A stretch of 64,000 nucleotides of DNA from an uncultured Alphaproteobacteria bacterium (GTDB lineage: Bacteria; Pseudomonadota; Alphaproteobacteria; Rhizobiales; Xanthobacteraceae). The position numbers were made by a program, and so were the translations under genes. The stretch covers positions 348,025-412,024 of the forward strand of contig CAVYPW010000003.1 of NCBI GenBank assembly GCA_963770515.1, written 5' to 3'. Of the stretch, positions 12,013 through 37,247 are shown piece by piece; position 1 is the stretch's first letter; each line of letters begins with the position of its first letter. The notes beneath the pieces were generated by a model. It was not told the origin of the DNA, did not search any database, and saw only the letters and a program-made list of their open reading frames with translations.

Positions 12013-12027
12013 ACGTGGGGTTACGCA

Positions 12028-18940: not shown

Positions 18941-20114
18941 TCACTTCATCGGGCATTTGTCGTGGAAGTTATCCTGGTTGTCCTTGACGATGGTGGCCAC
19001 GGTCTTGAGCGAGAGCGAGCCGTCGGCACCCTTCACCACGTCCTGCAAATAGAAATTCTGGATCGGAATGTGGTTGTTGCCGTATTTGAAGGCGCCGCGC
19101 AGCGACTTGAAATCGGCCTTCTCCATCGCCGCCTTCATCGCGTCCTTCTTGCTGGTATCGCCCTTGACCGCGACCACGGCGCTGTTGATCAACTGTGCCG
19201 CGTCATAGGCCTGCGCGCCGTAATAGGTCGGGCGGAGCGGCGCGTACTTCTTGCGGTAGTCTTCGACAAACTTCTTGTTCTGCTCGCCCGGCAGGTCGTT
19301 CACCCACTCCTGGGCGCCGGGAACGCCGATTGCGTTATCCTTTTGCAGCGGCAGCGACAATTCATCGATCGTGAACGCCGTATAGAGCGGCATCTGCTGC
19401 TTCATGCCGGCCTGCGCGTACTGATTGAGGAACTGCACGCCAGCGGCGCCCGGATAGAACACGAAGATCGATTCTGCTTTCGAATTGCGCGCTTTGGTGA
19501 GTTCAGCCGAGAAATCGAGCTGAACTCGGCCACACCGTGTATTCCTCACCCAACACTTCGCCCTTGAAGGTGCTCTTGACGCCGGCCAGCATGTCCTTGC
19601 CGGCAGCATAGTTTGGACCGATCAGGAACACCGACTTGACGCCCTTCTGGTTCATGTAAAGGCCCATCGCCGCCGGCGTCTGGTCGTTTTGCCAGGAGGT
19701 CGAGAACACGTAAGGCGAGCACAAGTCACCGGCGAGTTGCGAGGGTCCGGCATTGGCCGAGATCAGGAAGGTCTGCGAATCCACCGCGGTCTTGAGCGAG
19801 GCGAGCAGCACGTTCGACCAGATATAGCCGGCGATGAAGTCGACATGATCGGACTGCACCAGCTTCTCGGTCTTCTGCTTGCCGACATCCGGTTTCTGCT
19901 GGTCGTCCTCATAGATCACCTCGACCGGCTTGCCGCCCATCTTGCGACCGAGGTGATCGAGCGCGAGCTCGAACGAGTTGCGCATGTCGTTGCCGATCAC
20001 GGCCGTCGGCCCGCTGAACGTCGAGACAAAACCGATCTTGATCGTATCCGCCGCAGCCGCTGGCTGAGCCAGGGCCAGCACGGTGGCGCTCGCAAGCCAA
20101 AATGCCGTTCTCAT
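18941..20114 (-). pseudogene. Liv-type ABC substrate-binding protein (aromatic-acid binding subfamily likely), +1 frameshift near 19523 (probably a sequence error)
   Basis: Signal peptide, IKIGFVSTFSGP, YEDDQQKPDVG, NAGPSQLAG; EEYTVWPS joins QLDFSAEL after removing one T. Confidence 0.85.
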
Positions 20115-20463
20115 CGTCGTCTCCCTCCTCAATTCCTTGTTGGCTTATGCCGCCCACCAACCCCGGCGCCGTTTGCGGAGGCATCCCAGCCTCCGGACGG
20201 TTTTTTGTGCTCGAAATGGCTGGCCCGCAGCAAGCACGAACCGACGGCTCCCTCTTGAACCTTTGGACCATGCCTTAGCCCATGCACCATAGTTCGTGGC
20301 AACAGCGGATGGCAAGAATTATAGTGCCGGTTCGTGCCATCGCGGGTTTGCGCCGGGTCGACAACAATCGGCTTTCGCGATCGGCCGATCAGGAGAGCGG
20401 TCTTGAGCCCGGCGGCCGAACGCTTACACCAGCAGAGGGAGCCGTTCGAACCTTGAGGGCACC

Positions 20464-21747: not shown

Positions 21748-21890
21748 AGAAAAGAACCCGCGGGTATTGCCCTTGAAACCGGCAAGAGGTCGTGCCAGAG
21801 CGAGGCGCAGGGCCCGCGTGAAATTCCCCCAAACAGTTGATAAGACTGGGTCATTCTGCCAAACAACCACCGCCCAGCCGACGTACACAA

Positions 21891-21906
21891 TGGCACACCG
21901 CTTGCT
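21891..21906 (+). promoter_or_regulatory. Sigma54 -24/-12 promoter for atzF
   Basis: TGGCAC-ACCGC-TTGCT matches the consensus with exact GG-N10-GC spacing, 115 bp upstream of the start. Confidence 0.75.
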
Positions 21907-22020
21907 TCGAAAAATGAAAAATTCCCGCACCTCCAGAGTACAATCGGATATGGCGCCCTCACCTCCCCGAACTCAATCGCCGCGCGCGCCGCGTGATATC
22001 CGCACGGATCGAGGTGGCGC

Positions 22021-23817
22021 GTGAGCGAGACCGTTGCCGCGATCGTCGCCGCGCATCGCGCCGGCCGCCAGTCCCCTGCGCAAACCGTGGCGCGCAGTTT
22101 TCAGCGCATCCGCGAGCACAACGATCCCGCTGTCTTCATCTCCTTGCGCGACGAGAAGGACGCGATTGCGGAAGCCGAAGCGCTTGCCGCCAACAAAGAG
22201 GCGAGCGAGCTGCCGCTCTACGGCATTCCGGTCGCGGTGAAGGATAATATCGATGTGGCGGGGTTGCCGACCACGGCCGCTTGTCCCGCCTATTCCTACA
22301 CGCCGACCCGCGATGCGATCGCGGTCGCGCGGCTGCGCCGGGCGGGCGCCATCATCATCGGCAAGACCAATCTCGACCAGTTCGCGACCGGCCTCGTCGG
22401 CGTGCGCTCGCCTTACGGCATTCCCACCAATCCGATGCGCGCCGATCTCATTCCAGGCGGATCGAGTTCGGGATCGGCCGTGGCCGTTTCGACCGGACTG
22501 GTGCCGCTCTCGCTCGGCACCGATACCGCAGGAAGCGGCCGCGTCCCGGCGATGTTCAACAATATCGTCGGATTGAAACCGAGCCTGGGCCTGATTCCAA
22601 CCGCGGGCGTCGTGCCGGCCTGCCGGACGCTCGATTGCGTCTCGGTGTTCTCGCTGACCGTCGACGACGCCGTGACCGCGCTTGAAGCCATGGCCGGCCC
22701 CGACAGGTCCGATCCGTTTTCACGCAACCGGACGCTATCGAGGATGAGCCCGTTTCCCACCGGCTTACGGCTCGGCGTGCCGCGCGACGGCCAGCTCATC
22801 TTCTTCGGCGACAAGAAGCAGGAAGCGGCCTATGCGGCCGCGCTGGAGAAGTGGCGCGCGTTGGGCGCCACGCTCGTCAGCTTCGATCTCGAGCCGCTCT
22901 ATGAAACCGCGCGGCTGCTCTATGAAGGCCCATGGGTGGCCGAACGTTATCTCGTGATCCGCAACATGCTGGCGTCGTCGCCCGACGCCATCCATCCCGT
23001 CACTCGCGAGATCACGATTGCGGGCAGCCGGCTCTCCGCAGCCGACACCTTCGCCGCGCTCTACCGGTTGCAGGCGCTGAGGCGCTCGGCCGAGCACGCC
23101 TTCGCCGATATCGACGCACTGGTACTGCCGACCGCGCCGACCGCCTATTCGACTGCGCAGGTGCTGGCCAACCCGATCGAACTCAACTCGCGGCTCGGGA
23201 CCTATACCAACTTCGTCAACCTGCTCGACCTCTGCGGTCTCGCTCTGCCGTCGGCGATCAGGTCCGACGAAATTCCGTTCGGCATCACGCTGCTCGCGCC
23301 GGCCGGCCAGGATGCGCTGATCGCGAGCATCGGCCGCGTCTTCCAGGCACAGACGAAACTGACGTTGGGCGCCAGGGGCGGGGCGATGCCGCCATTGGCC
23401 GATCTCAACCTGGTCTTGACCGGCGACGAAATCCCGATCGCCGTGGTCGGCGCGCATCTTTCCGGAATGGCGCTCAACAGCGAATTGAAGGCGCATGGCG
23501 CCCGCCTGCTGGAAGCGACATCGACCGCGCCCGACTATCGCCTCTATGCGCTTGCCACCGCGCCGCCAAAGCCCGGCATGCTGCGCGTCGAAGCGGGCGC
23601 CGGCACATCGATCGAGATCGAACTCTGGGCGCTGCCGGCTGTCGCCTTCGCCAATTTCGTCGCCGCGATTCCGCCACCGCTCTCGATCGGCACGGTGCGT
23701 CTGAAAGACGGCCGCGGCATCAAGGGCTTTATCGTGGAAGCCGCCGACATCGGCAGTGCAAAGGACATTTCAGCCTTTGGCGGCTGGCGTAGCTTTGTAG
23801 CGAAGGCGGCGACATAA
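22021..23817 (+). CDS. atzF: Allophanate hydrolase (amidase signature domain + C-terminal domain)
   Basis: KDNID, GKTNLDQFATGLVGVRSPYG, GGSSSGS, GTDTAGSGRVPA, LGTYTNFVNLLD and C-terminal VVGAHLSGMALN. Confidence 0.93.
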   Translation: MSETVAAIVAAHRAGRQSPAQTVARSFQRIREHNDPAVFISLRDEKDAIAEAEALAANKEASELPLYGIPVAVKDNIDVAGLPTTAACPAYSYTPTRDAIAVARLRRAGAIIIGKTNLDQFATGLVGVRSPYGIPTNPMRADLIPGGSSSGSAVAVSTGLVPLSLGTDTAGSGRVPAMFNNIVGLKPSLGLIPTAGVVPACRTLDCVSVFSLTVDDAVTALEAMAGPDRSDPFSRNRTLSRMSPFPTGLRLGVPRDGQLIFFGDKKQEAAYAAALEKWRALGATLVSFDLEPLYETARLLYEGPWVAERYLVIRNMLASSPDAIHPVTREITIAGSRLSAADTFAALYRLQALRRSAEHAFADIDALVLPTAPTAYSTAQVLANPIELNSRLGTYTNFVNLLDLCGLALPSAIRSDEIPFGITLLAPAGQDALIASIGRVFQAQTKLTLGARGGAMPPLADLNLVLTGDEIPIAVVGAHLSGMALNSELKAHGARLLEATSTAPDYRLYALATAPPKPGMLRVEAGAGTSIEIELWALPAVAFANFVAAIPPPLSIGTVRLKDGRGIKGFIVEAADIGSAKDISAFGGWRSFVAKAAT

Positions 23818-23922
23818 CCTCATGGTGAGGAGGCGCGCCAGCGCCATCTCGAACCATTGTTTCTCTCATCCTTCGAGACGCGCGCAACGAGCTACGTTCG
23901 CCGCACGCTCCTCAGGATGAGG
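23818..23922. repeat. REP element (CCTCATxxTGAGGAG family)
   Basis: cctcatggtgaggag...ctcctcaggatgagg; related copies at 44414 and 54514; lies between convergent stops. Confidence 0.8.
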
Positions 23923-23923
23923 G

Positions 23924-24658
23924 TCACACCGAAACCGCATAAAGCGCGTATTCGCCGTGCACCCGCTCGATATGCGCGCGCATCGCATTGGCCGCGCCAT
24001 TGCGATCGCCGCGCATGATGGCCACCACCACGCGATCATGCTCGGCATGCGACTGCGCCAGCCGACCGAGATTGCGGAACTGGGCACGGCGGAACGGTTG
24101 CACGCGCTTGCGTGTCGCCAGCGTGATCTCGGCGATATGACCGTTTTGCGAGCCGGTGTAGATCGAGCTGTGAAAGCGCTCGTTGACCTCATGAAAGCGA
24201 TCGGGATCGCCGGCGTGGCTCAGCACCCGCAGTTCCTCATGGATCGCTTCCAGCCGATAGCGCTCGGCCGGCATCATCCGCTCCGCCGCCAGCCCCGCGC
24301 ACAATGCTTCCAATTCCGCCATCGCCTCGAACATCCCGCTCAGGCGCTCGATCGAGGGCTGCGCTACCACCGCACCGCGATGGGCGCGCGCTTCCACGAG
24401 CCCTGAGACCGCGAGCTGCCGCAATGCCTCACGCACCGGCGTACGCGACACGTTGAAGCGCCGCGCGATGTCGGTTTCGTCCAGCGCCGATCCCGGCGCC
24501 AGCGCGCCGCGCACGATCTCGTCGGCCAGTTGCAGGCGCAACTCCTCGGCGCGGGTCAGCTTGTCGACGCCGCGGACGCCTGCGCCACGACGAACCGTCG
24601 TCTTGGCTTCCTGAATGGCGCCAAGCGATGCCAGGTCTGGGAGGTCGTCAAGGCTCAT
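23924..24658 (-). CDS. GntR family (FCD) transcriptional regulator
   Basis: wHTH VSRTPVREALRQL followed by an FCD domain (NERFH...EH.RVV.AI). Confidence 0.9.
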   Translation of the reverse strand: MSLDDLPDLASLGAIQEAKTTVRRGAGVRGVDKLTRAEELRLQLADEIVRGALAPGSALDETDIARRFNVSRTPVREALRQLAVSGLVEARAHRGAVVAQPSIERLSGMFEAMAELEALCAGLAAERMMPAERYRLEAIHEELRVLSHAGDPDRFHEVNERFHSSIYTGSQNGHIAEITLATRKRVQPFRRAQFRNLGRLAQSHAEHDRVVVAIMRGDRNGAANAMRAHIERVHGEYALYAVSV

Positions 24659-25053
24659 GCCTTTTGATCCCGCGGTTCGTCGATCACGCTGACATGCGCG
24701 GCGACGATTTTCCACCCCTCGGCAAACCGGACCCACGTCTGCATCTGCCGTCCGACCTTGCCCGGCGCGGAATCGCGATAAAACAGCGTCGAGGCCACCG
24801 CCGTGTCGCGGCCGTAGGTCGTGATCACTGTACGATCGGTCCGGCGTATCAGGCCGGCGGACGGGCGCGCTGCGCGAAACGCCATGATCTCTTGATAGCC
24901 ATAGAGATTTTCACCTCCGCCATAGCGCAGCGTGCGCGGATCGTCGCGGAACAATTCATCGAGCGCCGCGACGTCATTGGTCACCAGCGCCTTTTCGTAA
25001 CGCGCGAACTGCGCGGTCACCTCGGCAAGCACATCGGGAAGATCGACCTGCAT
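24655..25053 (-). CDS. atzH: AtzH/HpxZ-like protein (DUF3225)
   Basis: YEKALVTNDVAALDELF, ENLYG..EI.AFR, GRQMQTW, WKIVAAHVS. Confidence 0.88.
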   Translation of the reverse strand: MQVDLPDVLAEVTAQFARYEKALVTNDVAALDELFRDDPRTLRYGGGENLYGYQEIMAFRAARPSAGLIRRTDRTVITTYGRDTAVASTLFYRDSAPGKVGRQMQTWVRFAEGWKIVAAHVSVIDEPRDQKA

Positions 25054-25066
25054 TTTCAAATCCTGC

Positions 25067-26443
25067 TCAAATCGCTCTTGGCCGCGGCGCGGATACGACA
25101 CCCTGCCGTTCCAGCGCAGCCGCCACCCGCAGCGCGATGTCTTCGCGCCACGGCGCGGCAATGATCTGCACGCCGATCGGCATCGGCTCGAGCGGAACCG
25201 GAACCGCGACCACCGGCAAACCGATAAAGGAGATCGGCTGGGTGTGAATGCCGATATTGGCGCGCACCGGAAGTTCGACACCATCGAGCACGAAATTCAT
25301 CTGACCCAATTTCGGCGCGACGCAAGGCGTCGCCGGCGCCAGGATGACATCGACCGATTTGAACAGTTCGAGAACCTGTGAGCGATACCAGCGGCGGAAT
25401 TTTTGCGCGCGGTCGACCATCGGCGCCGGAATCATCGCTCCCGCGATCAGGCGGTCGCGCACGGCGGGATCGAAATCGTCAGGCCGCGTACGCAGCCGAT
25501 CCAGATGAAGCGAAGCGCCTTCACAAGTGGAGATGACGTAAGCCGCGGCACGGGCGCGCGCGGCTTCCGGAATTTCGACCGTGCGGCTGGCGCCCAGCGC
25601 CTTGGCAACGCGGCCGACCGCTTCGGTGGCTTCAGGGAAGACGTTGTTCTGGAAATAGCCGCCGGCTACCGCAATTCGCAAATCGCCGGTTCCTTGAGCG
25701 AGCGACGGCAAAGCCGGCTCGACCGGCCGCGTCGTGCAGGCGGCGTCGGCCACATCCGGCCCCTGCATCGCGTCATAAGCGAGCGCCAGGTCGCCGACCG
25801 AGCGCGCCAGCGGACCGACATGATCGAATGAGAACACGAACGGAAACGAGCGCGCACGGGAGAGCCGGCCGTAGGTCGGCTTCAGTCCGAAGATTCCACA
25901 AAACGACGACGGCACCCGGATCGAGCCGTTGGTGTCCGAGCCGAGCGCCAGCGGAACCAGCGCGCCGCCGACGGCGCCGCCCGAGCCGCCCGAGGAGCCG
26001 CCGGTCATCCGCGTCAGGTCATGCGGATTGCGCGAGGGACCATCGTGAATGTTTTCGCCGGTGAAATCGTAAGCGTATTCGCCCATATTGAGCGCACCGA
26101 CCAGCACGGCGCCGGCGGCTTCCAACCGTTCAACCAGCGTGGCATCGCGCGCGGCCGCGGGAAGATCGCGGTTGATCTTCGATCCGGCCCGGGTCGGCAG
26201 ACCCTTGACGTCGAACAGGTTCTTCACGGCAAACGGGACGCCGGCAAGCGCTCCGGGATGTTTACCGGCCGCGATGGCGGCATCGACGGCGCGTGCTTTT
26301 TCACGCGCTCGTTCGGCGGTGACGTCAGTAAAGGAGTTCAGAGCCGAATCGTGCCTGGCGATCCGCGCCAGTGCGGCTTCGATAGCGCTCAGCGCCGAAA
26401 ATTTCTTGTCCCTGACAGCCTGCGCGATGTCGAGCGCAGACAT
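25067..26443 (-). CDS. atzE: AtzE-family amidohydrolase (1-carboxybiuret hydrolase / HpxY-like)
   Basis: AVKNLFDV, LNMGEYAYDFTGEN, GGSSGGS, GSDTNGSIRVP, RDRLIAG, TQPISFIGLP. Start placed at ATG 26443 after GGAG. Confidence 0.88.
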   Translation of the reverse strand: MSALDIAQAVRDKKFSALSAIEAALARIARHDSALNSFTDVTAERAREKARAVDAAIAAGKHPGALAGVPFAVKNLFDVKGLPTRAGSKINRDLPAAARDATLVERLEAAGAVLVGALNMGEYAYDFTGENIHDGPSRNPHDLTRMTGGSSGGSGGAVGGALVPLALGSDTNGSIRVPSSFCGIFGLKPTYGRLSRARSFPFVFSFDHVGPLARSVGDLALAYDAMQGPDVADAACTTRPVEPALPSLAQGTGDLRIAVAGGYFQNNVFPEATEAVGRVAKALGASRTVEIPEAARARAAAYVISTCEGASLHLDRLRTRPDDFDPAVRDRLIAGAMIPAPMVDRAQKFRRWYRSQVLELFKSVDVILAPATPCVAPKLGQMNFVLDGVELPVRANIGIHTQPISFIGLPVVAVPVPLEPMPIGVQIIAAPWREDIALRVAAALERQGVVSAPRPRAI

Positions 26444-26468
26444 TCCGTCTCCGGCCCCTGTCACGGTA

Positions 26469-26651
26469 TCAAGCTGTGAAGACACTGGCGGGCTCGGCTG
26501 CGTCGGAGAATGCGAACTCGTCCACCAGCCGTGCCATCTTCATGGACACTTCGAGATTGGCCCGTACGGTGGGTTTCCAGGCTTCCTTGACCGGAAGCCT
26601 CAGGGCCTTGGCGGCCGCGTCGATGTAATCGTCCAGCGAATCTTCTGACAT
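26469..26651 (-). CDS. atzG: AtzG/HpxX-like small accessory subunit (DUF4089)
   Basis: 60 aa, LDDYIDAAAKALRLP...EPASVF, immediately upstream of the AtzE-like gene. Confidence 0.8.
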   Translation of the reverse strand: MSEDSLDDYIDAAAKALRLPVKEAWKPTVRANLEVSMKMARLVDEFAFSDAAEPASVFTA

Positions 26652-26677
26652 TTCAGCCTTTTTAGTTCAGCCCTCAA

Positions 26678-28408
26678 TCAGGCCACCGGTAGTGGCGGAT
26701 GGGGAATAGCCGTCAGCAGCTCCTTTGTATAGGCATTTTGCGGATCGCCCAAGACCTGGTCCGACGTCCCCTGCTCGACAATTTTCCCCGTCCGCATCAC
26801 GATGACACGGTCACACAACAGCCGCACCACGTTCAAATCGTGCGAGACGAACAAATAGCTCATGCCCAGCGACTGCTTGAGGTCCTGGAGCAAATTCAAC
26901 ACCACCGCCTGCACCGAAACATCGAGCGCCGCGGTCGGCTCGTCGAGGATGACGAGCTTCGGACTGAGCGCCATCGCGCGCGCAATGCCGACGCGGGCCT
27001 TCTGCCCGCCCGACAATTGATGTGGAAAGCGATCGAGCAGATTGACCGGCAGACCGACCAATGTCGCCAGTTCCTCGCAGCGCGCCCGCAGCGCATCGCG
27101 CCCGCTAACGTTACCCAGTCTCAGGATCGGATCGGCGATCGCGCGCACCGCCGTAAAGCGCGGGTTGAGGCTGTCGGTCGGATCCTGAAATACCATCTGG
27201 ATGCTCTTGCGCTGTGGCAATCGCGCAAAGGCATTCGGCAGGATGCCGCCGATCTCTTCGCCGTCGAACGAAATGCGGCCGGACGTCTGATCCAACAGCC
27301 GCATCACCATCATCGAGGTGGTGGACTTGCCGCAACCGGACTCGCCAACGAGGCCGACGCTTTCGCCATGGCCGACCGTAAAGCTGATTCCGTCGACCGC
27401 GCGAAAAATCTCAGGCTCGGCGGGCGGCTTGCGCGCGAACAATTTGGCGAGCATCGCCGGCGCGCCCTGGCGCGGATATTCCTTCACCAGCTTTTCGACC
27501 AGCAGAAGCGGTTTGGCCGGAGCATTCGCGCCCTCGGCCTTCCCGTTTGTCGTAGGCATGGGCGGTGCCGGCAGCAAGGCCGCCTCTTCCTCCGGCAACA
27601 GGTCGCGCAAGGAGACGCCGATCCGCGGCGTCGCGCGCATCAATTTGCGCGTATAGGGATGTTCGGGCTTCGCAAAAATATTGGCCGAGAGCGCGGTCTC
27701 GACCACGCGTCCCTTCTCCATCACAACGACACGATCGCAATAGGCCGCCGCGAGACCGAGATCATGCGTGATCAGGATGGTCGACATGCTGCGCGCTTTG
27801 GTGAGCTCGACGACGAGGTCCATCACCGCCTTCTGGGTCGTGACGTCGAGGCCGGTGGTGGGCTCGTCGGCGATCAGCAAGCGCGGACCGCAGGCCAGCG
27901 CCAGCGCGATCACCACCCGCTGGCACATGCCGCCCGAAAGCTCGAACGGATAGGCATGATAGCGCTCGCGGGGGCGCGCGATCTTGACCTGCTCCAGCGC
28001 TGCGATCGCCCGGTCGGTCACCTGCGAGCGATCGACCTGGACATGTTGCAGCAGCACATCCTCGATCTGATGGCCGATCTTGCGGATCGGATTGAGCGCC
28101 AGCCGCGGGCTCTGGAAGATCATCGACATTTCGCGGCCGCGCATGTCGCGCATCTGATCTTCGGTCGCAGCCCTGACATCGACGCCGGAGAATTGAACCG
28201 AGCCTTCCGCGATCTTGCCGGCGCGATCGAGAATCCGCATCACGGCATAGGACGTTACTGATTTGCCGGAACCGGACTCGCCGACGATGCCGAGCGTCTC
28301 GCCCTTGGCGACCGCGATATTGACATGCTGAACGGCCTTGACGATGCCGCGCCGGGTGGCGAATTCCACTGTGAGATCGTTGACATCGAGCAGCGGCAGC
28401 GCGGTCAT
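26678..28408 (-). CDS. Dpp/Opp-type ABC ATP-binding protein with two fused ATPase domains
   Basis: Two GESGSGKS/GESGCGKS Walker A motifs, two LSGG signatures, DEPT motifs. The ORF-track N-terminal extension is a translated repeat. Confidence 0.92.
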   Translation of the reverse strand: MTALPLLDVNDLTVEFATRRGIVKAVQHVNIAVAKGETLGIVGESGSGKSVTSYAVMRILDRAGKIAEGSVQFSGVDVRAATEDQMRDMRGREMSMIFQSPRLALNPIRKIGHQIEDVLLQHVQVDRSQVTDRAIAALEQVKIARPRERYHAYPFELSGGMCQRVVIALALACGPRLLIADEPTTGLDVTTQKAVMDLVVELTKARSMSTILITHDLGLAAAYCDRVVVMEKGRVVETALSANIFAKPEHPYTRKLMRATPRIGVSLRDLLPEEEAALLPAPPMPTTNGKAEGANAPAKPLLLVEKLVKEYPRQGAPAMLAKLFARKPPAEPEIFRAVDGISFTVGHGESVGLVGESGCGKSTTSMMVMRLLDQTSGRISFDGEEIGGILPNAFARLPQRKSIQMVFQDPTDSLNPRFTAVRAIADPILRLGNVSGRDALRARCEELATLVGLPVNLLDRFPHQLSGGQKARVGIARAMALSPKLVILDEPTAALDVSVQAVVLNLLQDLKQSLGMSYLFVSHDLNVVRLLCDRVIVMRTGKIVEQGTSDQVLGDPQNAYTKELLTAIPHPPLPVA

Positions 28409-28426
28409 GTCACACTCATTTTCTTG

Positions 28427-28497
28427 AGCATGATCTCCGCGCAAACGCCCGCATTTGTCGCGAGGGAAAACCGGCGCCCACTTTTCCGGATCATGCT
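28427..28497. repeat. Rhizobial RIME-like palindromic repeat (AGCATGATC...GATCATGCT)
   Basis: 9-bp terminal inverted repeat with a GGAAAA.../TTTTCC internal stem; fills the gap between permease and ATPase genes. Confidence 0.8.
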
Positions 28498-28499
28498 TC

Positions 28500-29402
28500 T
28501 CATGTCCTCCGCTGCGGATCGACCAGATCGCGCAAACCATCGCCGAGCAGGTTGAAGCAGAACACCGCGATCATCAGCGCCCCGCCGGGAAAGAAAGCCA
28601 CCCACCACTCGCCGGAAATGATGTTGGTGGCGCCCTCCGCCACCATGATTCCCCACTCCGGCGTCGGCGGCTTGACGCCGAGCCCGATGAACGACAGGCC
28701 GGCGGCATTGAGGATGGCGTAACCCATGGTCAGCGACACCTGCACCATCATAATCGGCATGATGTTGGGCAGAATATGCGTCAGCAAAATCCGCATGTCG
28801 CTGTTGCCGGAAAGCCGCGCGGCCTGCACGAAGCCGGCGTCGCGTCGCACATTGGCTTCGGCGCGGGCCACGCGGACGTAAAGCGGGAAATTGATGATCG
28901 CGGTCGCGATCACGATGTTGGTCACGGTATTGCCCAGCGCCGCGACGATGCCCATCGCCAGCACGAATAACGGAAACGCCATGATCGTATCGGAGATGCG
29001 CCCGATGATGCGGTCCGTCCATCCGCCGAAAAAGCCGGCGGCGATCCCGGCGATCCCGCCGATGGCGAGCACCAGGGCAACCGAGGCGACCGCGATCACG
29101 AAATCGAGACGGGTGGCGACGACGACGCGGCTGAAAATATCACGCCCGACCAGATCGGTGCCGAACCAGTGCCGCAGCGAGGGAGACTGCAACGTCGCCG
29201 AGGTGTCGCTGGCAAGCGGATCGTAGGGAACGACATAGGGACCGATCAAGGCGCACAGCGCGATCAGGATAAACAGGCCGAACGACAATCCGGTAACGGG
29301 ATTGTCGGCCACCACATAGATGGCATGGCGGAGTAGCGAGTTGGTCGGCGGTTTCGCCGGAAGGTTTGCGGCCGGCGCCGTCGTCAGGCTGGCTTCGGTC
29401 AT
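28500..29402 (-). CDS. Dpp-type ABC permease (DppC-like)
   Basis: HWFGTDLVGRDIFSR, EAA-like loop HILPN, LSFIGLG..PP.PEWG. Confidence 0.92.
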   Translation of the reverse strand: MTEASLTTAPAANLPAKPPTNSLLRHAIYVVADNPVTGLSFGLFILIALCALIGPYVVPYDPLASDTSATLQSPSLRHWFGTDLVGRDIFSRVVVATRLDFVIAVASVALVLAIGGIAGIAAGFFGGWTDRIIGRISDTIMAFPLFVLAMGIVAALGNTVTNIVIATAIINFPLYVRVARAEANVRRDAGFVQAARLSGNSDMRILLTHILPNIMPIMMVQVSLTMGYAILNAAGLSFIGLGVKPPTPEWGIMVAEGATNIISGEWWVAFFPGGALMIAVFCFNLLGDGLRDLVDPQRRT

Positions 29403-30406
29403 GCATCGACCCTCACGCGCGGATCGATCACGCCATAGAGCATGTCGATGATCAGGTTAAGCGCGACGTAGAGCACCGCCATGGTCAGCACGAAGCCCTG
29501 CACCGGCGCGAAATCCGATTGCAACAGCGCCTCGACCGCGTAAGAGCCGATGCCGGGCCACGCAAAGACCTTCTCCACCAGCACATTGGCGCCGAGCAAA
29601 AACGAGAACACCATGCCGAGCGTGGTCACGACCGGCAGCATCGCGTTGCGGAACGCGTAGGTCAGGATCACCTTGCGGCTGTTGAGGCCGCTGGCGCGCG
29701 CGGTCCGGATGAATTCCGACGCCAGCACCGCCAGCATCGAGGCGCGGGTCATGCGCGTGATCGGCGCCAGCGAAAACACCGCCAGCGTCACCGCCGGCAG
29801 GATCAATTGGCTGAACGCGGCGCGAAAGGTTTCGAAATTTCCGGTGATCAGGCTGTCGATCAGGAAGAAGCCGGTAATGTCAGGCGGACTGGTGGCAAAC
29901 GCATCAAGCCGGCCGAGCGGCGCGGGCGACCAGCCCAGGCGGAAGTAGAACACATAGACCAATAGCAGCCCGGTAAAGAACACCGGCAGCGAGACGCCCG
30001 CGGTCGCGATCACCCGGCATAGATGATCGATCCAGGAGCCCTGCTTGACCGCGGCAAAGATGCCGAGCGGCACCGCGATCGCGATCGCCAGGAACAATCC
30101 GAACAGCGTGAGTTCAGCGGACGCCGGCAGCCGGCTCGAGATTTCAGCGGCGACCGGGCGGCCCGTCGACAGCGAATTACCGAAATTGCCGTGGGCTAGA
30201 TCGTTGACATAGCGCAGGAACTGATCCGGCAGCGACCGGTCGAGCCCGAGCGATTTTCGAATCTCCGCGATCGACTCCGGCGTTGCCGCGGGGCCTGCGA
30301 AATACACCGCCGGATCGCCCGGCAAGACGCGCGTCAGCAGAAACGTCACGATGATCACGCCGATCAGGGTCGGTATGACGGTTGCGAGCCGCTTGAGGAT
30401 CACCAT
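29399..30406 (-). CDS. Dpp-type ABC permease (DppB-like)
   Basis: LPGDPA, GNFGNS, RMTRASM, VEKVFAWPGIG, DPRVR. Confidence 0.92.
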   Translation of the reverse strand: MVILKRLATVIPTLIGVIIVTFLLTRVLPGDPAVYFAGPAATPESIAEIRKSLGLDRSLPDQFLRYVNDLAHGNFGNSLSTGRPVAAEISSRLPASAELTLFGLFLAIAIAVPLGIFAAVKQGSWIDHLCRVIATAGVSLPVFFTGLLLVYVFYFRLGWSPAPLGRLDAFATSPPDITGFFLIDSLITGNFETFRAAFSQLILPAVTLAVFSLAPITRMTRASMLAVLASEFIRTARASGLNSRKVILTYAFRNAMLPVVTTLGMVFSFLLGANVLVEKVFAWPGIGSYAVEALLQSDFAPVQGFVLTMAVLYVALNLIIDMLYGVIDPRVRVDA

Positions 30407-30483
30407 GATGTTCGAACTCCAGAATGGTCCGCGCCCGCGTCCTTGCGTCGTTTAGCGGCTAACGGCTGCGCCGCGATTGGCCT

Positions 30484-32103
30484 TTAACCCTTGACGATCG
30501 AGCGGTAATCGAGCTGACGGTGGAACCAGTAGGTGTAGCCGGAAATGTTCTTCTGCGTGGCGACGTTGAGGAACGGCTGGAACAGCGGAATCCGCGGCGC
30601 CTCGTCAAAAGCCTTGGTGATGAAGCCCTCGACGTCCTTGGCGTATTTGTCCTTGTCGCCGATCGCAGCCGCCGCTCGCGCGCCGTCGATCAGCGCGTCC
30701 ATGTCCGGATTGACATAACTCGAGGTGTTGAAGATCGCGTTCTGGCCGGAATAGCACCAGAAGAAGAAGTATTCGGGATAGTCGAGCCAGCCGGAGAAGA
30801 AGTTGATCATCAGCGGCATGCTTTTCTTCGCCATCTCGCTGCGCCAATTGGCGCCCGGCACCTTGTTGATCGAAGTCTTGATGCCGATCTGGCCAAGGCT
30901 CTCCTGCACCAATACCGAGATCGGCTCGCAGATATCGCCGGCGCCGAGGTCATAGGAGATCGTGGTGTCGATGCCGGAAACGCCGCTCTCGGCCATCAGC
31001 GCCTTGGCCTTCGCCATGTCGTTGGCGTAGCCGGTCTTGGCCGGCCAGGCGATATCGGTGACCTTGTTGGAGGGACCGCCAAACAAGGGATTGGCGAGGC
31101 CGAACATCGCCGCGTCCATGATCTTCTGATAGGGCAGCGCATAGGCCACCGCCTGACGAACCTTCGGATTGTCGAACGGCGGATTCTTCACGTTCAGCTC
31201 GACCGAGTACATGCCGTTGCCGATCGGATTGGAGATGACGACGAGCTTGCTCTCCTTTTTCATCTCGAAGGTATCTTTACTCGAGAGATCAAAGGAGATG
31301 TCGGCGTCGCCGCGCTCCATCAAGGCGCGGCGATTACCCTGTGAGGGAACGGTGCGCCAGATCACCCTCTTGAGCTGAGGCAGCTTGCCGCCGACCCAAT
31401 CCTCGTGGCGCTCGTAGACGACTTCAACACCCGGCTTCCAGCTCGTCACTTTATAGGCGCCGCTGCCGGCGGTGTTGCTCTTGGTATAGTCCAGAGCCCA
31501 CGGGTCTTTTTCCGTGGCTTTCTTCTTCAACAGTTCGGAGTTGTAGACGCTCGGCACGATCACCGCGAGATCGGGAAGCGTGAGGCGATCCTTCCTGGCG
31601 AAATCGACGCGAATGGTGCTGTCGTCGACAAGGACAAACTGATCCTTGTTGGAAAGCGAGCCGGCCTTCATCTGCACCGTCGGAAAGCCGCCGACCGTGA
31701 CCGACCGATCGAGCGACCATTTGACGTCCCTGGCCGTGACCGGCGTGCCGTCGTGGAATTTGGCGTTCTTCTTCAATTTGAACGTCACCGACATGTCGCC
31801 GACGTTCATATCCTCGGCCAACTCCAGCTTGAACTTGTCGCGATCGTAAGACAGCGAGCCGTCGGGAAGCGTTTTCGTTTCATGGCTGATGAGCCGGTCG
31901 TAGCAATTCCACGACGTCTCGTAGCCCGGCCGGTTGGTGCCGACGCCATGAATATCGAGATTGTTGGGACCGCCTTCGGTGACCACCAGCAATGTTTCCG
32001 ACCGCGCATCGGCTTTCGCCGGCGACCAGATCGCGGGCGCCTGCACGGTCGCAGCCCCGACCGCAAGGCCGGAAACGGATTTGAGAAAATCGCGGCGCTT
32101 CAT
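30484..32103 (-). CDS. Dpp-type (family 5) ABC substrate-binding protein, Tat-exported
   Basis: MKRRDFLKS twin-arginine signal, FKLKKNAKFHDGTPVTARDVKWS, VRQAVAYA. Confidence 0.92.
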   Translation of the reverse strand: MKRRDFLKSVSGLAVGAATVQAPAIWSPAKADARSETLLVVTEGGPNNLDIHGVGTNRPGYETSWNCYDRLISHETKTLPDGSLSYDRDKFKLELAEDMNVGDMSVTFKLKKNAKFHDGTPVTARDVKWSLDRSVTVGGFPTVQMKAGSLSNKDQFVLVDDSTIRVDFARKDRLTLPDLAVIVPSVYNSELLKKKATEKDPWALDYTKSNTAGSGAYKVTSWKPGVEVVYERHEDWVGGKLPQLKRVIWRTVPSQGNRRALMERGDADISFDLSSKDTFEMKKESKLVVISNPIGNGMYSVELNVKNPPFDNPKVRQAVAYALPYQKIMDAAMFGLANPLFGGPSNKVTDIAWPAKTGYANDMAKAKALMAESGVSGIDTTISYDLGAGDICEPISVLVQESLGQIGIKTSINKVPGANWRSEMAKKSMPLMINFFSGWLDYPEYFFFWCYSGQNAIFNTSSYVNPDMDALIDGARAAAAIGDKDKYAKDVEGFITKAFDEAPRIPLFQPFLNVATQKNISGYTYWFHRQLDYRSIVKG

Positions 32104-32146
32104 CGGATACTCCAGCACACAAAGGGATCGGTTCTGGAACCAGCTT

Positions 32147-32162
32147 CGCAAGGTTCGTGCCA
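32147..32162 (-). promoter_or_regulatory. Sigma54 -24/-12 promoter for the dpp-atzGEH-gntR operon
   Basis: Minus strand TGGCAC-GAACC-TTGCG with exact GG-N10-GC spacing, 44 bp upstream of the SBP start. Confidence 0.75.
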
Positions 32163-32192: not shown

Positions 32193-32401
32193 ATCCCTGA
32201 TTTGGCTTGTCGATCGTGGGCCGGCTGCGACCGCGGCGGTGGCGCGGCCGCAAAAATTCATTGCATACAGAGAAATAAACTTGCTGAATTAATAGGCAGG
32301 GATTTCTGACCCTTTATGGCCTCCCAGAGCCGGCCGTCGCACCACGCAACCAGCGGCGGATAGCGCGGATTTGTGCTCTAAAAATCAGGCGTGAGAATGC
32401 G

Positions 32402-33442
32402 TTGAACCTTTTTTCCCGGCCATCGACATTATTACGGGGGGACAAACTGCCCGTGTACACCCGCGCCGGCCTTTCGCGGACCGTCATCATGTTCGCTGCA
32501 TTGCTTTTGACGGCCGTCACGACGAGCGCGCCTGCGCGTGAGTTTCGCGCCGCAGACACCCAGAGCGAGGACTATCCGACCGTCCAGGCGCTGCGGTTCA
32601 TGGGCCGGCTGATCGAGGAGAAAACGGGCGGCCGGCTGCAGATCCGCGTATTCCATTCGCGCCAGCTCGGCGAAGAAAAGGAAACCATCGAGCAGACCCG
32701 CGCCGGCGCCATCGATCTCAACCGCACCAACGTGGCGCTGATCGGGACCTTCGTGCCGGCCATGAACGTGCTGGCGATGCCGTTTCTGTTCCGCTCCATC
32801 GAGCATTTGCAGAACGTGCTGGATGGCCCGATCGGCGACGAAATCCTGGGCAGCTTCGAGCCGTATGGCTTCGTTGGCCTCGCCTTCTACGATTCCGGCG
32901 CACGATCGATCTACAACAGCGTCAGGCCGATCCGCTCGCTCGCCGACATGAAGGGTTTGAGGCTTCGCGTGCAGCAATCGGAACTGATGTCCGACATGAT
33001 CAAGGCACTCGGCGCCGAGCCGATCGAATTGCCCTACGGGCAAGTCCGTACCGGCCTTGCCACCAAGCTGATCGATGGTGCGGAAAACAACTGGCCGTCC
33101 TTTGTCACCACCGACCATTACAAATATGCCGGCTTCTATACGCTCACCGAGCATACGATGAGCCCCGAGGTGCTGGTGATGTCGCACAAGGCCTGGACGA
33201 GTCTGTCGGCGGAAGATCAGGCGATCTTTCACGACGCCGCCCGGCAGTCGAGCCGCTTCATGCGCGGGCGCTGGAAGGACCTCGAGGAGCAATCGCGCCG
33301 GCAGGCGCGATCAGCCGGCGTGACGATCGTGAGCGACTTCGACCGCAAGCCGTTCGAAGCGGCGATGGATGGCCTTTACGCCAAGGCCAGGCGCGATCCG
33401 GCCGCAGCTGCGCTGATCGAACGAATTCGCAAGGTCAACTGA
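32402..33442 (+). CDS. TRAP transporter substrate-binding protein (DctP family), with no dctQM nearby
   Basis: Signal peptide, QLGEEKETIEQ, LRLRVQ (conserved Arg), DGAENN, LTEHTMSPEVL. Confidence 0.92.
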   Translation: MNLFSRPSTLLRGDKLPVYTRAGLSRTVIMFAALLLTAVTTSAPAREFRAADTQSEDYPTVQALRFMGRLIEEKTGGRLQIRVFHSRQLGEEKETIEQTRAGAIDLNRTNVALIGTFVPAMNVLAMPFLFRSIEHLQNVLDGPIGDEILGSFEPYGFVGLAFYDSGARSIYNSVRPIRSLADMKGLRLRVQQSELMSDMIKALGAEPIELPYGQVRTGLATKLIDGAENNWPSFVTTDHYKYAGFYTLTEHTMSPEVLVMSHKAWTSLSAEDQAIFHDAARQSSRFMRGRWKDLEEQSRRQARSAGVTIVSDFDRKPFEAAMDGLYAKARRDPAAAALIERIRKVN

Positions 33443-33443
33443 A

Positions 33444-35531
33444 TTGCAGCAGGAAGCGCACCAGCACGCGACCATGGAAGCGCCCGCGACTTTCGCCGGG
33501 CGCGGCCATTCGCGGCTGGTCGCGCTGGTGCGCGCGGTGCCGATCCGCTGGCGTATCCTATCGATCGCGGCGCTGAATTCGGCCGTCGTCGTGGTGCTGG
33601 TCGCGCTGATCTGGAACGGCGTCCAGGTTCTGGGGTCGGCCTGGGACGATGTGCGACAGGCGCGAGAATCCGACAACATCCTGGCGCGGCTCGAGAGCGA
33701 AACCGGCCATCTGCAAAACCTGATCCATCGCTATATCAACCAGCCGAGCCCGGAAATGTTCGCCGAGATCTCGCATGTGCGCGAGACGATGCTGGGCACC
33801 CTGACGACGCGGGCCTCGACCGATCCGATGCTTTCCGGCTCGGTCGAGCGGCTCGAGCGTGTCACCGAGCGCTTCCTCAACGGCTTCAGCCAATTGAGCG
33901 CGGTCCAGGCCACGATCACGAAGACCTATGAGGATGAGGTCCTCACGCCGGCCCGCGACATGGCCGGGCTTTATTCGATCATCGAGGGCGCCACCGGCCA
34001 CCGCGATGCGCTGATCTGGCCCTCGCTCGGCAAATCCCGCGAGGCCTTCACGACCATGCTGGTGGCCGCCAACTCCTATTATCTCTCGCTGGCGACAGCT
34101 TCCGCCGAAGAAGCGAGCCGCAACATCGAGACCATCCAGCAGACCATCCCCGTAATGATCGACCTCGCCGACAACGATCTGCAACGGATGGCATTGCAAC
34201 GGCTGAACGCGCGAAGCAAGGCGCTCGGCGAAGGCCTTGCGAAACTGTCGGCGCAGCTGACCAACCGCACCGAGCTTTTGCGCGACGCGATCGACGCGAG
34301 CCAGGCCGAGGCTTCCGGCGCCATCGATGAATTGTCGGTCAAGATGCGCCGGCGGGAGCAGAGAGCGCAGGAGACCTTCGACCAGACACTTGCCGACATT
34401 TCCCGAAAAGTGCTTTCGATCGCCGTGATCTTCCTAGGGATCATCATCACCGCCGGGGTTTTGATCGCGCTGTCGATCCGCCTGCCGTTGCAGCAGATCA
34501 TGACTTCGATGCACGCGATCACCTCAGGCGACTACAATCGCAAAGTTCAGGGCACCGGCGCCAACGACGAGGTCGGCGAGATGGCGCGCGCGGTGGAAGT
34601 GTTCCGCGAAAACGCCATCGCCAAGCGGAAGACCGAAGACGAATTACGCGCCTCCAAGGAAAAGGCGGAGAACGCGCTGCACGAGCTCAATGCGGCGCAG
34701 CAGAACCTGATCGACGCCGAACGTCTGGCGGCGCTCGGCGGCCTGGTCGCGGGCGTGGCCCATGAAGTGAACAACCCGATCGGCATCAGCCTGACGGTTG
34801 CCTCGAGTTTCGCACGCCGCACCGAGGCGTTCGAGGACGAACTGAGGAGCAGCAACGGATTACGACGCTCGCAGCTCGACGAATTCGTCAGGACCTCGCG
34901 CGACGCCGCCCAGCAACTGGTGGGCAATCTGCACCGCGCCGGCGAACTCATTCAGTCCTTCAAGCAGGTCGCGGTCGACCGCTCGCATGCCGAGCGGCGG
35001 ACCTTCAATCTGAATGAGGCGACCGACCAGATCATCGCGAGCCTGCGGCCCGCGCTGAAGAAGGCGTCGATCGCGCTGTCGGTCGAAGTGCCTGAAAACC
35101 TCGTCATCGACGGCTATCCCGGCTCTTACGGCCAAATTCTGACCAACCTGTTCCTGAACGCCGCGACCCATGCCTTTCCCGACGGGCGCTCGGGGACCAT
35201 TACGATCTCGGCCAAGCCGCGCGGCAGCGACGATGTCGAGATCACATTTGCCGACGACGGCGCCGGCATGACGCCCGACGTGCAGCGCCAGGCGTTCGAC
35301 CCCTTCTTCACCACGCGCCGCAACGAAGGCGGCACCGGACTTGGCCTGCACATCGTTTATAATCTCGTGACCCAGCAGCTGGGCGGCCGGATGATGCTCG
35401 ATTCAAGGCCGGGACAAGGCACCACGTTTCGCATTATCATGCCCAAAGCCGCCAAGGGCGGTCAGCCAACCGAAAACCAGGATCGCGACAGGACTTCTGC
35501 ATGGCCGAACAGGACGATGTCCTCCACCTGA
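33444..35531 (+). CDS. Membrane sensor histidine kinase (periplasmic helical domain, HAMP, HisKA, HATPase)
   Basis: Two TM segments around a ~290-aa helical periplasmic region, DEVGEMARA HAMP, GVAHEVNNP H-box, DDGAGM, GGTGLGL. The start may be 33474. Confidence 0.9.
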   Translation: MQQEAHQHATMEAPATFAGRGHSRLVALVRAVPIRWRILSIAALNSAVVVVLVALIWNGVQVLGSAWDDVRQARESDNILARLESETGHLQNLIHRYINQPSPEMFAEISHVRETMLGTLTTRASTDPMLSGSVERLERVTERFLNGFSQLSAVQATITKTYEDEVLTPARDMAGLYSIIEGATGHRDALIWPSLGKSREAFTTMLVAANSYYLSLATASAEEASRNIETIQQTIPVMIDLADNDLQRMALQRLNARSKALGEGLAKLSAQLTNRTELLRDAIDASQAEASGAIDELSVKMRRREQRAQETFDQTLADISRKVLSIAVIFLGIIITAGVLIALSIRLPLQQIMTSMHAITSGDYNRKVQGTGANDEVGEMARAVEVFRENAIAKRKTEDELRASKEKAENALHELNAAQQNLIDAERLAALGGLVAGVAHEVNNPIGISLTVASSFARRTEAFEDELRSSNGLRRSQLDEFVRTSRDAAQQLVGNLHRAGELIQSFKQVAVDRSHAERRTFNLNEATDQIIASLRPALKKASIALSVEVPENLVIDGYPGSYGQILTNLFLNAATHAFPDGRSGTITISAKPRGSDDVEITFADDGAGMTPDVQRQAFDPFFTTRRNEGGTGLGLHIVYNLVTQQLGGRMMLDSRPGQGTTFRIIMPKAAKGGQPTENQDRDRTSAWPNRTMSST

Positions 35532-37243
35532 TCGACGATTCCGGTGCCGACCCGGAAATCTCCGGCGCGCGCAAATGGAAGATCGCGGTCATCGACGACG
35601 ATCAGGCGGTGCATGAGGGCACCCGCTTTGCGCTGAGCGATTACAGCCTCAACGGACAGGGCCTCGAAATCCTGTCGGCCTATTCCGGCAGCGAGGGGCG
35701 GACGCTGATGCGCGCGCATCCGGACATCGCCGCGGTGCTGCTCGACGTCATTATGGAGACCGACGCCGCCGGTCTAGATCTCGTCGAATATATCCGCAAC
35801 GAGCTTCGTAACGAGACGGTCCGCATCATCCTGCGCACCGGGCAGCCCGGACAGGCGCCCGAGCGCCGCGTGATCGTCCAGTACGACATCAACGACTACA
35901 AGGCGAAGACGGAACTCACCGCCGACAAGCTGTTTACCTCGCTCACCGCGGCGTTGCGCAGCTATCAGCAGCTCGAACGCATGGTCCAGACCCGGCGCGG
36001 ACTGGAAATCATCATCGACGCCGCCTCGACGCTTTACGATTTCAAATCGATGCAGCGCCTGGCCGAGGGCGTACTGACGCAGATCGCCTCACTCCTCAAC
36101 GTCGATTGCGCCGGCATCCTGGTGCTGCGCGACGGCGGCGCGACCAACGACGATTTTTCGGTGTTGGCGGGCTCCGGCTGCTACAGCCGTTTCATTGGCA
36201 CTACAAGTGCCAAGTCGCTCGATGCCGATTTGCGCACGATGGTCGAAGCCGCCTTTCGGCGCCGCAAGCACGAATTCGTCGATCAGCGCACCGTGCTCTA
36301 CATCCGCACCGGCAGCGGGCGCGAGGTCGTGGTGCTGCTGCAAGCCGAGCGGCAACTGTCGGAGACTGACCGTTCGCTGGTCGAGATCTTCGGCAGCCGG
36401 CTTTCGATCGCCTTCGACAACGTCATCCTCTACCAGCAGCTCCAGCAGGCCAATACCCAGCTCGAGGACCGCGTCACCCAACGCACCCGCGCGTTGATGC
36501 AAGCCAATCGCCGGCTCTCGGCGCAATGGCTGCGGCTGCAACGCGCCAACGGCTTCAAGAACGAGATTCTCGGCACCGTCGCCCACGACCTGAAGAATCC
36601 GCTGAGCGTGATTCTCGGCCGCACCGAAATGCTGACCGAACTGATCGCCGCCGGCTCCTCCCGCGACAACGTCACCTCGCAGATCGAGCATATCCGCGAC
36701 GCCACCAAGCATCTGACCTCGATGGTCGATCACCTGATCTCGGATGCGATGGCGGATGCGTTCGACATCACCATCCGCCGCGAACCGGTCGATATCGCAG
36801 CCCTGGTCGGCGAAGTGGCCGATGCCAATCAACCGCTCGCCGTCAACAAACAGCAATCGATTACCGTTGCCGCCTCCCCCAACCTCACCATCACCTGCGA
36901 TGCGGACCGAATCCGCGAGGCCATCGACAATCTCATCAGCAATGCCATCAAATACAGCCCGATCGGCGGCAAGATTTCGGTGCAGGTCGGTCAGGATTTA
37001 AAAATGACCGCTATCCGCGTCGTCGACGAAGGCGCCGGGCTCTCGCCGGAGGACCTAGGCCGGCTATTCGGGCGTTTCCAGCGGTTGTCCGCCAAGCCCA
37101 CAGCCGGCGAGAGCTCGACCGGACTGGGATTATCGATCGTCAAACGCATTATTGACATGCATGGCGGCGAGGTTACGGCCAACAGCGCCGGGCCTGGACA
37201 AGGCTCGACATTCACCATCACATTGCCGGCAGCAGACGTGTAA
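35501..37243 (+). CDS. Cytoplasmic hybrid: receiver + DUF3369-like domain + histidine kinase
   Basis: VIDDD...LLDVIME receiver, RIILRTGQPGQAPE and INDYKAKTELT typical of DUF3369 proteins, VAHDLKNP H-box, STGLGL; no TM segment. Confidence 0.85.
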   Translation: MAEQDDVLHLIDDSGADPEISGARKWKIAVIDDDQAVHEGTRFALSDYSLNGQGLEILSAYSGSEGRTLMRAHPDIAAVLLDVIMETDAAGLDLVEYIRNELRNETVRIILRTGQPGQAPERRVIVQYDINDYKAKTELTADKLFTSLTAALRSYQQLERMVQTRRGLEIIIDAASTLYDFKSMQRLAEGVLTQIASLLNVDCAGILVLRDGGATNDDFSVLAGSGCYSRFIGTTSAKSLDADLRTMVEAAFRRRKHEFVDQRTVLYIRTGSGREVVVLLQAERQLSETDRSLVEIFGSRLSIAFDNVILYQQLQQANTQLEDRVTQRTRALMQANRRLSAQWLRLQRANGFKNEILGTVAHDLKNPLSVILGRTEMLTELIAAGSSRDNVTSQIEHIRDATKHLTSMVDHLISDAMADAFDITIRREPVDIAALVGEVADANQPLAVNKQQSITVAASPNLTITCDADRIREAIDNLISNAIKYSPIGGKISVQVGQDLKMTAIRVVDEGAGLSPEDLGRLFGRFQRLSAKPTAGESSTGLGLSIVKRIIDMHGGEVTANSAGPGQGSTFTITLPAADV

Positions 37244-37247
37244 TCCC

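Follow-up and report, generated by a model that had tools for sequence, protein, structure and literature searches.

The stretch of DNA analysed here (64,000 nt, called the window in the following) comes from an uncultured alphaproteobacterium of the family Xanthobacteraceae and carries genes for AtzE, AtzG, AtzH and AtzF, known from the lower cyanuric acid pathway, together with a peptide-type ATP-binding cassette (ABC) importer. The window is a part of contig C3 of a 6.28-Mb assembly that is 99.97% complete, and its closest public relatives are Bradyrhizobium and uncultured alphaproteobacterial metagenome-assembled genomes (MAGs) from soil. Coordinates are positions in the window, and genes were called from the listing of open reading frames (ORFs) together with Pfam and NCBIfam profile scans. 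Eight genes on the minus strand form an operon for a solute-binding protein (SBP), two permeases, a fused ATPase, AtzG, AtzE, AtzH and a GntR-type regulator, while atzF lies convergent to them on the plus strand. The junctions in the operon are tight, ranging from overlaps to gaps of 13-77 nt; permB/permC and atzH/gntR overlap by 4 nt, and the overlaps at atzG/atzE and permC/ATPase are longer than 4 nt, provided that the longest ORFs represent the real starts.

The first gene of the operon (30484..32103, minus strand like all that follow) encodes a family-5 SBP (PF00496, 247 bits), the real start of which is the ATG of MKRRDFLK, a twin-arginine leader for export by the twin-arginine translocation (Tat) system. 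It is followed by permeases of the DppB/NikB type (29399..30406; PF00528 and BPD_transp_1_N) and of the DppC/NikC type (28500..29402; PF00528 and OppC_N) and by a fused two-domain ATPase of the DppD/DppF type (26678..28540; two ABC_tran domains and oligo_HPY), which probably starts about 45 codons inside the called ORF. The original prediction of a Tat-exported family-5 SBP with a peptide-type importer was thus borne out. The closest solved structures of the SBP, AgaA (6HLX) and GsiB/YliB, are distant (about 1e-31 to 1e-34), and naming the ligand from solved relatives (AgaA, GsiB/YliB and unnamed peptide or ABC SBPs, about 1e-29 to 1e-34) was rejected for this reason. Triuret, cyanurate and another ureide are the candidate ligands.

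The gene atzG (26469..26651) specifies a GatC-type small subunit of 60 amino acids (PF13318, 55 bits, cut-off 24) and overlaps the start of atzE (25067..26485), the product of which is an amidase of the AtzE family, the large subunit of 1-carboxybiuret hydrolase (NF006631, 748 bits, cut-off 461; TIGR02715, 741 bits, cut-off 426). On comparison with AtzE of Pseudomonas sp. ADP (PDB 6C62, 490 bits), the Ser-cisSer-Lys catalytic motifs KNLFD, GGSSGGS and GSDTNGSIR were found to be kept. The next gene, atzH (24655..25053), encodes an NTF2-fold (DUF3225) protein of the AtzH/HpxZ type, a predicted decarboxylating amidohydrolase that would turn 1,3-dicarboxyurea into allophanate (PF11533, 195 bits; NF033625, 200 bits, cut-off 135) and is the only AtzH copy that a search of the genome revealed; its best structural matches are PDB 2RCD (164 bits) and AtzH 6BJT (147 bits). 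Tyr22, Arg46 and Arg73 are conserved, the catalytic residues being taken from the published work on AtzH (PMC6219798), and the motifs RYEKAL and TLRYG are kept in the alignment to 6BJT. The final operon gene (23924..24658), with an ATG that overlaps the stop of atzH, encodes a GntR/FCD regulator (PF00392, 59 bits; PF07729, 93 bits) that is syntenic in most of 80 orthologous loci, which were fetched with the SBP as query. On the plus strand, atzF (22021..23817) encodes an allophanate hydrolase with amidase and AH_C domains (TIGR02713, 804.5 bits, cut-off 511; PF21986, 162 bits). All four Atz proteins that had been named from the DNA are therefore present, far above the curated cut-offs. Contrary to the gene order first proposed, atzF is not in series with atzG, atzE and atzH, and the GntR/FCD regulator had not been listed.

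This atzF is the sole allophanate hydrolase above the cut-off in the genome, and no urea carboxylase above the cut-off was found there, which rules out a urea amidolyase role for atzF; allophanate must consequently come from a ureide route. The enzyme that would open this route is not in the window: no AtzD, BiuH or γ-glutamyltransferase (GGT) family gene of the HpxW kind was found in it, in agreement with the original prediction. Outside the window, the genome encodes two AtzD proteins and one each of BiuH and TrtA. Of the three genes for which a genome search had been suggested, atzD and biuH were thus found elsewhere, while for hpxW only generic GGTs were seen, and TrtA came in addition.

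The TrtA gene (G000:C4:492601-493323) lies on a different contig from the window and is the only one in the genome. Its product has PDB 6XIX, 6XJE and 6XJ4 as top matches (281 bits), ahead of BiuH structures (223-229 bits); these three entries are the TrtA of Herbaspirillum, for which six residues were reported to separate TrtA from BiuH, namely F35, N41, A134, E160, Y187 and I205 (PMC7948467). On comparison with 6XIX, all six are in the TrtA state in the protein of this genome, and D24, K129, C162 (catalytic) and Q202 are conserved. The genome's BiuH (384 bits, cut-off 370) has Y, Y, S, D, T and V at the six positions, which is the BiuH consensus, and is encoded inside a Bmp/Nup-type ABC operon with an exact sigma-54 promoter of its own; biuret is for this reason unlikely as the substrate of the family-5 system. 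The stop of trtA is overlapped by a gene (G000:C4:490949-492601, or L112:7950-9602, minus strand) for a polytopic membrane protein of 550 amino acids, here called perm550, which has no match in Pfam or NCBIfam. Its neighbours in the Atlas are labelled 'AGZA/xanthine-uracil permease' or, wrongly, 'regulator', the latter being also the annotation of its RefSeq relatives, and it adjoins trtA in many genera. Perm550 probably serves as a permease for triuret or something related, of a kind distantly similar to NCS2/AzgA.

The two AtzD paralogues (532 and 480 bits, NCBIfam equivalog cut-off 360) are both encoded off the window contig. One, on contig C4, adjoins a major facilitator superfamily (MFS) transporter gene. 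The second (G000:C6:553400-558500, or L005:6971-11982) stands in a plus-strand run with the large subunit of a molybdenum hydroxylase resembling carbon monoxide dehydrogenase (CODH) and xanthine dehydrogenase, apparently split in two ORFs, and with an HpxO-like FAD monooxygenase; a NitT/TauT-type ABC system adjoins. The C6 cluster may serve an oxidative N-heterocycle pathway, barbiturate- or pyrimidine-like, rather than cyanurate breakdown.

AtzG, AtzE and AtzH are also homologous to HpxX, HpxY and HpxZ, and the AtzH of the window scores equally well as HpxZ, so that the two names are inseparable by sequence alone. The trio could accordingly be read as HpxX/Y/Z acting on oxalurate from purine breakdown to give oxamate, with the AtzF-like amidase in place of HpxW. 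The 132-amino-acid protein is indeed named HpxZ by NCBIfam (200 bits) and is closest to 2RCD from Pectobacterium, and the enterobacterial ggt-atzGEH arrangement is the commonest published context of the trio (PMC6219798). However, none of the four GGT-family paralogues of the genome is near the cluster, and they match generic GGT models only and look like ordinary GGTs; in the annotated parts of the window, allantoate and ureidoglycine genes did not appear; the gene conserved alongside the trio encodes a complete allophanate hydrolase, AH_C domain included; and the enzymes joined to the cluster are the carboxybiuret makers TrtA and AtzD. A role in oxalurate breakdown is thus very improbable. 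For AtzE-AtzG, it is 1-carboxybiuret, and not oxalurate or biuret, that is the predicted substrate, on the strength of the linked genes for TrtA, AtzD and AtzF.

The control regions tie the window to the distant trtA. The SBP operon has a sigma-54 promoter, TGGCAC-GAACC-TTGC (32148..32162, minus strand), 59 nt upstream of the SBP ATG. Counterparts of this promoter are found in 75 of the 80 orthologous loci, in 74 of them at -50 to -73 and in one at -113. The promoter of atzF (21882..21905, plus strand) is composed of the half-palindrome CGTACACAAT, which reads ATTGT-AC-ACAAT in relatives, abutting an exact sigma-54 -24/-12 element, TGGCAC-N5-TTGC, at 21891..21905. The region singled out in the original prediction, 21891 to 32162, ends at both sides on the -24 elements of these two promoters. 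In most orthologous loci the atzF promoter is kept as TGTACACAATGGCAC-N5-TTGC. The same design, ATTGT-AC-ACAAT abutting TGGCAC-N5-TTGC, was found at trtA, the sequence TGTACACAATGGCAC being common to the two promoters; as TTGTACACAATGGCAC-N5-TTGC, the trtA promoter is seen in this genome, in most relatives in the genus and wherever trtA heads a trtA-atzF operon. The genome has 34 exact TGGCAC-N5-TTGC sites, where chance would give about 15, and among them are those that precede the SBP gene, atzF, trtA and the Bmp-BiuH operon.

About 90 nt upstream of the SBP promoter lies the motif TGTATGCAATG (32259..32269, minus strand), which is related to the atzF/trtA palindrome and is a candidate regulator site; of 81 upstream regions, 63 contain its core 8-mer, GTATGCAA. 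Across the whole genome, the strict pattern TGTAYRCAATG is restricted to this motif and the trtA promoter. Inverted repeats of the GT-N-AC type, such as ATTGT-AC-ACAAT, are commonly bound by GntR-family proteins. Probable targets of the operon's own GntR/FCD protein are ATTGT-N2-ACAAT at the promoters of atzF and trtA and the related motif ahead of the SBP promoter; since the palindrome abuts the -24 element, a protein bound there would block the polymerase. NtrC-type GCAC-N7-11-GTGC sites were not found upstream of the SBP promoter in the window, nor in 19 of 20 orthologous loci sampled. Upstream of the C4 atzD there is neither a sigma-54 site nor the shared motif, and the C6 copy is inside a different operon, so atzD was rejected as a member of the same regulon.

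Convergent atzF follows the SBP-to-gntR operon in 59 of the 80 orthologous loci. Across 201 evenly sampled genomes of the family, with AtzH counted above its cut-off and TrtA orthologues at >=67% identity, AtzH was found in 138, TrtA in 73 and AtzD in 56 genomes and, by genus, TrtA is almost confined to where AtzH occurs. Within the genus to which the window belongs, 7/7 genomes have AtzH, 7/7 have TrtA and 3/7 have AtzD. Comparison of coordinates placed trtA less than 18 kb from atzH in 24 of the 73 TrtA-positive genomes, which represent 10 genera, and 20 such regions were fetched and mapped. In a recurrent layout, trtA-(perm550)-atzF is convergent with SBP-perm-perm-ATPase-atzG-atzE-atzH-gntR (L126-L128, L130-L132); elsewhere, perm550-trtA is divergent from the SBP operon with a common control region (L139-L141), or trtA-perm550 stands with atzGEH and atzF and without the ABC system (L133-L136). 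From these linked layouts, and from the promoter design found at both places, it was concluded that the layout of the window is the common one with trtA-perm550 moved elsewhere. Bradyrhizobium isolates in which the genes are split in this manner include strain dw_411 and B. erythrophlei GAS478. In loci where the ABC genes have no adjoining atzGEH, AtzH and TrtA are still encoded elsewhere in the genome.

All parts are joined in the cultured strain Terrarubrum flagellatum 7MK25, in which a plasmid (NZ_CP091852.1, 344961-358066; L156) carries one co-directional operon for the SBP, a second SBP paralogue, two permeases, the ATPase, TrtA, perm550, AtzF, a DUF4089 protein (AtzG), AtzE and HpxZ, with gntR divergent and upstream of it. 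Its TrtA is 66% identical to that of the present genome, with the TrtA residues kept, and its perm550, annotated as 'regulator', is 76% identical.

The presence of TrtA in the genome, the shared promoter design and the joining of the genes in sister genera and in Terrarubrum mean that triuret, via carboxybiuret, explains most of the system. The entry enzyme absent from the window is, on this comparative evidence, most likely TrtA, encoded elsewhere behind the same promoter design, and the region probably forms the core of a scattered regulon under nitrogen control, which would mineralise triuret, and perhaps cyanuric acid as well, via 1-carboxybiuret. Both TrtA and AtzD produce 1-carboxybiuret, and AtzEG, AtzH and AtzF take this compound to ammonia and CO2 without loss to biuret (PMC6219798, PMC7948467). 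In the proposed mechanism, triuret would be taken up by the ABC system and/or the TrtA-linked permease, and TrtA would convert it to 1-carboxybiuret and NH3. AtzE-AtzG would then turn carboxybiuret into 1,3-dicarboxyurea ahead of its decay to biuret, AtzH would give allophanate, and AtzF would release the last two ammonia molecules. Sigma-54 and an enhancer-binding protein, probably NtrC, would activate the genes under nitrogen limitation, with the GntR/FCD protein of the operon probably acting at the atzF and trtA palindromes and at the related motif of the SBP operon. The general view that the genes form a nitrogen-scavenging system of uptake and breakdown was supported. The further proposal that its substrate is a natural ureide not yet assigned was not supported for this genome, where TrtA stands behind the atzF promoter design and is joined to the cluster in sister genera; it survives for two genera, g6 and g28, considered below.

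The two AtzD can also feed 1-carboxybiuret, though no sign of control shared with the module was seen. The module might then be mainly the lower cyanuric acid pathway, as in atzDGEHF of Pseudomonas sp. ADP, fed by the two unlinked AtzD and with the ABC system importing cyanurate. Both paralogues exceed the equivalog cut-off, AtzD makes the substrate of AtzEG (PMC6219798, PMC7948467), and in three sampled genomes (L125, L137, L138) atzD lies less than 6 kb from atzH. Nevertheless, none of the 80 orthologous loci has atzD within 10 kb, and AtzD is found in far fewer genomes than AtzH, both in the genus (just 3/7) and in the family (56 against 138 of 201). The C4 copy has its own MFS transporter beside it and lacks the sigma-54 promoter and shared motif, and the other copy belongs to the molybdenum hydroxylase/monooxygenase cluster. 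A module devoted mainly to cyanurate is therefore improbable.

Several observations weigh against a regulon built around triuret. The genera g6 and g28 keep ABC-atzE-atzH-gntR with convergent atzF (L142/G005, L143/G165 and L144/G016), whereas searches of their genomes at E<=1e-30 gave no homologue of TrtA or BiuH, and AtzD is likewise absent, so the module can persist without any known feeder; in these genera, either AtzEG takes triuret or another ureide directly, or a further entry enzyme exists. TrtA has its own adjacent permease, and the ABC system thus need not carry triuret. The AtzH of the window is slightly nearer to the enterobacterial HpxZ-type 2RCD (164 bits) than to AtzH 6BJT of strain ADP (147 bits), and its NCBIfam name is HpxZ (equivalog, 200 bits, cut-off 135), so that the substrate of AtzE and AtzH is not fixed by sequence alone. 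Finally, both the assignment of the operator to the GntR protein and the choice of NtrC as activator are what we infer from the DNA. At the g6 and g28 loci, no canonical sigma-54 promoters were seen. The atzF ORF of L143 has just 452 amino acids and looks like the amidase domain alone. Extra enzymes were sought in the variant loci L040, L046, L142 and L143, and only unrelated genes were found (phosphopantetheinyl transferase (PPTase), TauE, phosphoadenosine phosphosulfate (PAPS) reductase, sarcosine oxidase and PurU).

Another explanation, that of the original prediction, has the ABC importer bring in a stable ureide or acyl-urea as a direct substrate for deamidation by AtzEG, with no need of TrtA or AtzD; AtzH and AtzF would finish the breakdown, and TrtA would be a second entry route into the module. 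The role of such clusters was left open in the literature (Esquirol et al. 2018, PMC6219798), and the whole module is kept without TrtA, BiuH and AtzD in g6 and g28. AtzH is also more widespread than either feeder (AtzH in 138 of the 201 genomes, TrtA in 73, AtzD in 56), and TrtA, besides having its own permease, runs in L133-L136 as trtA-perm550-atzGEH-atzF with no ABC system. On the other hand, TrtA is present in 7/7 genomes of the window's genus and shares the atzF promoter design, and the ABC genes and trtA are in one operon in Terrarubrum and have a divergent control region common to both in L139-L141. Moreover, we know of no stable natural compound that would yield allophanate through the AtzEG and AtzH steps. 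Direct use of such a ureide is unlikely on balance, if less so than the cyanurate and oxalurate explanations, and it is equally doubtful that triuret and cyanurate were later add-on feeders of an older ureide pathway served by the family-5 importer and AtzEG/AtzH/AtzF, a possibility suggested by g6 and g28.

Compared with atzDGEHF of Pseudomonas sp. ADP, the present locus has the same AtzE, AtzG, AtzH and AtzF enzymes and keeps the order atzG-atzE-atzH, but it is without atzD, has atzF as a separate convergent unit and includes the ABC importer and the GntR regulator in the operon. The ADP genes are plasmid-borne, whereas those described here are chromosomal and near-core in the family (138/201 genomes). 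Control differs too, being by sigma-54 promoters in the window, whereas the cyanuric acid operon of strain ADP is controlled by the LysR regulator AtzR. It was reported that atzG-atzE-atzH clusters are common in Proteobacteria and predate the use of atrazine, their purpose being left open (Esquirol et al. 2018, PLoS One 13:e0206949, PMC6219798). The 'allophanate hydrolase - ABC transporter - atzG-atzE-atzH' clusters of that study (Fig 6C/S3) have the same gene types and raise the same question of the native substrate; they come mostly from Betaproteobacteria and have their allophanate hydrolase gene upstream of the other genes and co-directional with them, unlike the convergent gene here, and TrtA, perm550, the GntR regulator and the promoters are outside their description. 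The TrtA-TrtB-BiuH-AtzF system of Herbaspirillum sp. BH-1 (Tassoulas et al., J Biol Chem 2021, PMC7948467) is similar in the TrtA specificity residues, the carboxybiuret intermediate and the final AtzF, but here AtzEG and AtzH would replace the TrtB decarboxylation and BiuH on the way to allophanate. Its importer is of the Bmp/Nup type, whereas that of the window is of the peptide type, family 5, and the Bmp-type system of this genome sits with BiuH in a separate operon. HpxWXYZ of Klebsiella and other Enterobacteriaceae has a homologous G/E/H trio and the HpxZ label in common with the window, but the GGT-family partner HpxW and nearby allantoate genes are missing here, the partners being allophanate hydrolase and TrtA. 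In the open-access literature, no paper on TrtA with AtzEG/AtzH, or on triuret in Bradyrhizobium, was found beyond PMC7948467, PMC6219798 and PMC12625717. The enzymes are all known; it is the combination of TrtA with AtzEG/AtzH for which no published description was found.

Triuret is a product of urate oxidation and an impurity of urea fertiliser. If the triuret regulon is real, the atzGEH clusters of one large soil family would serve to rescue carboxybiuret released by triuret hydrolase, and sometimes by cyanuric acid hydrolase, so that all of the triuret nitrogen is recovered. Four concordant lines point in this direction, namely the gene neighbourhood in 10 genera, the single operon of a cultured strain, the shared promoter and palindrome, and the co-occurrence of the genes. 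The importance of the finding is moderate, since every enzyme is already known; the parts that it brings to attention are the SBP, the perm550 family and the GntR operator abutting a sigma-54 promoter.

Other features of the window were noted in passing. Divergent from the SBP operon, on the plus strand (32402..37988), the gene for a DctP-type SBP of the tripartite ATP-independent periplasmic (TRAP) kind stands immediately before genes for two sensor histidine kinases and one response regulator of the OmpR type, and these genes are syntenic with the SBP operon in most Bradyrhizobium-like loci. They could encode a binding-protein-dependent two-component sensor. On the minus strand, a Peripla_BP_6 SBP of a Urt/Liv-type ABC system appears to be split into overlapping ORFs (19503..20132 and 18941..19609), and the same seems true of a phosphate-selective porin O/P (13785..15287 and 13496..14410). 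On the plus strand, a gene of the glutamine synthetase kind (11800..13465) is perhaps split as well: the ORF 12422..13465 matches the C-terminal part of the glutamine synthetase profiles only and is overlapped by the ORF 11800..12762, which is without a family match. The split ORFs of the window are frameshifts, due either to indels in the long-read MAG assembly or to real pseudogenes. Further along the plus strand, a single ORF of 806 amino acids (39869..42289) resembles subunit I of cytochrome bd over residues 5-315 only and subunit II over residues 478-801, so that it seems to be a fusion of CydA and CydB in which the CydA portion is truncated; a gene for an extracytoplasmic function (ECF) sigma factor (39188..39799) lies upstream of it.

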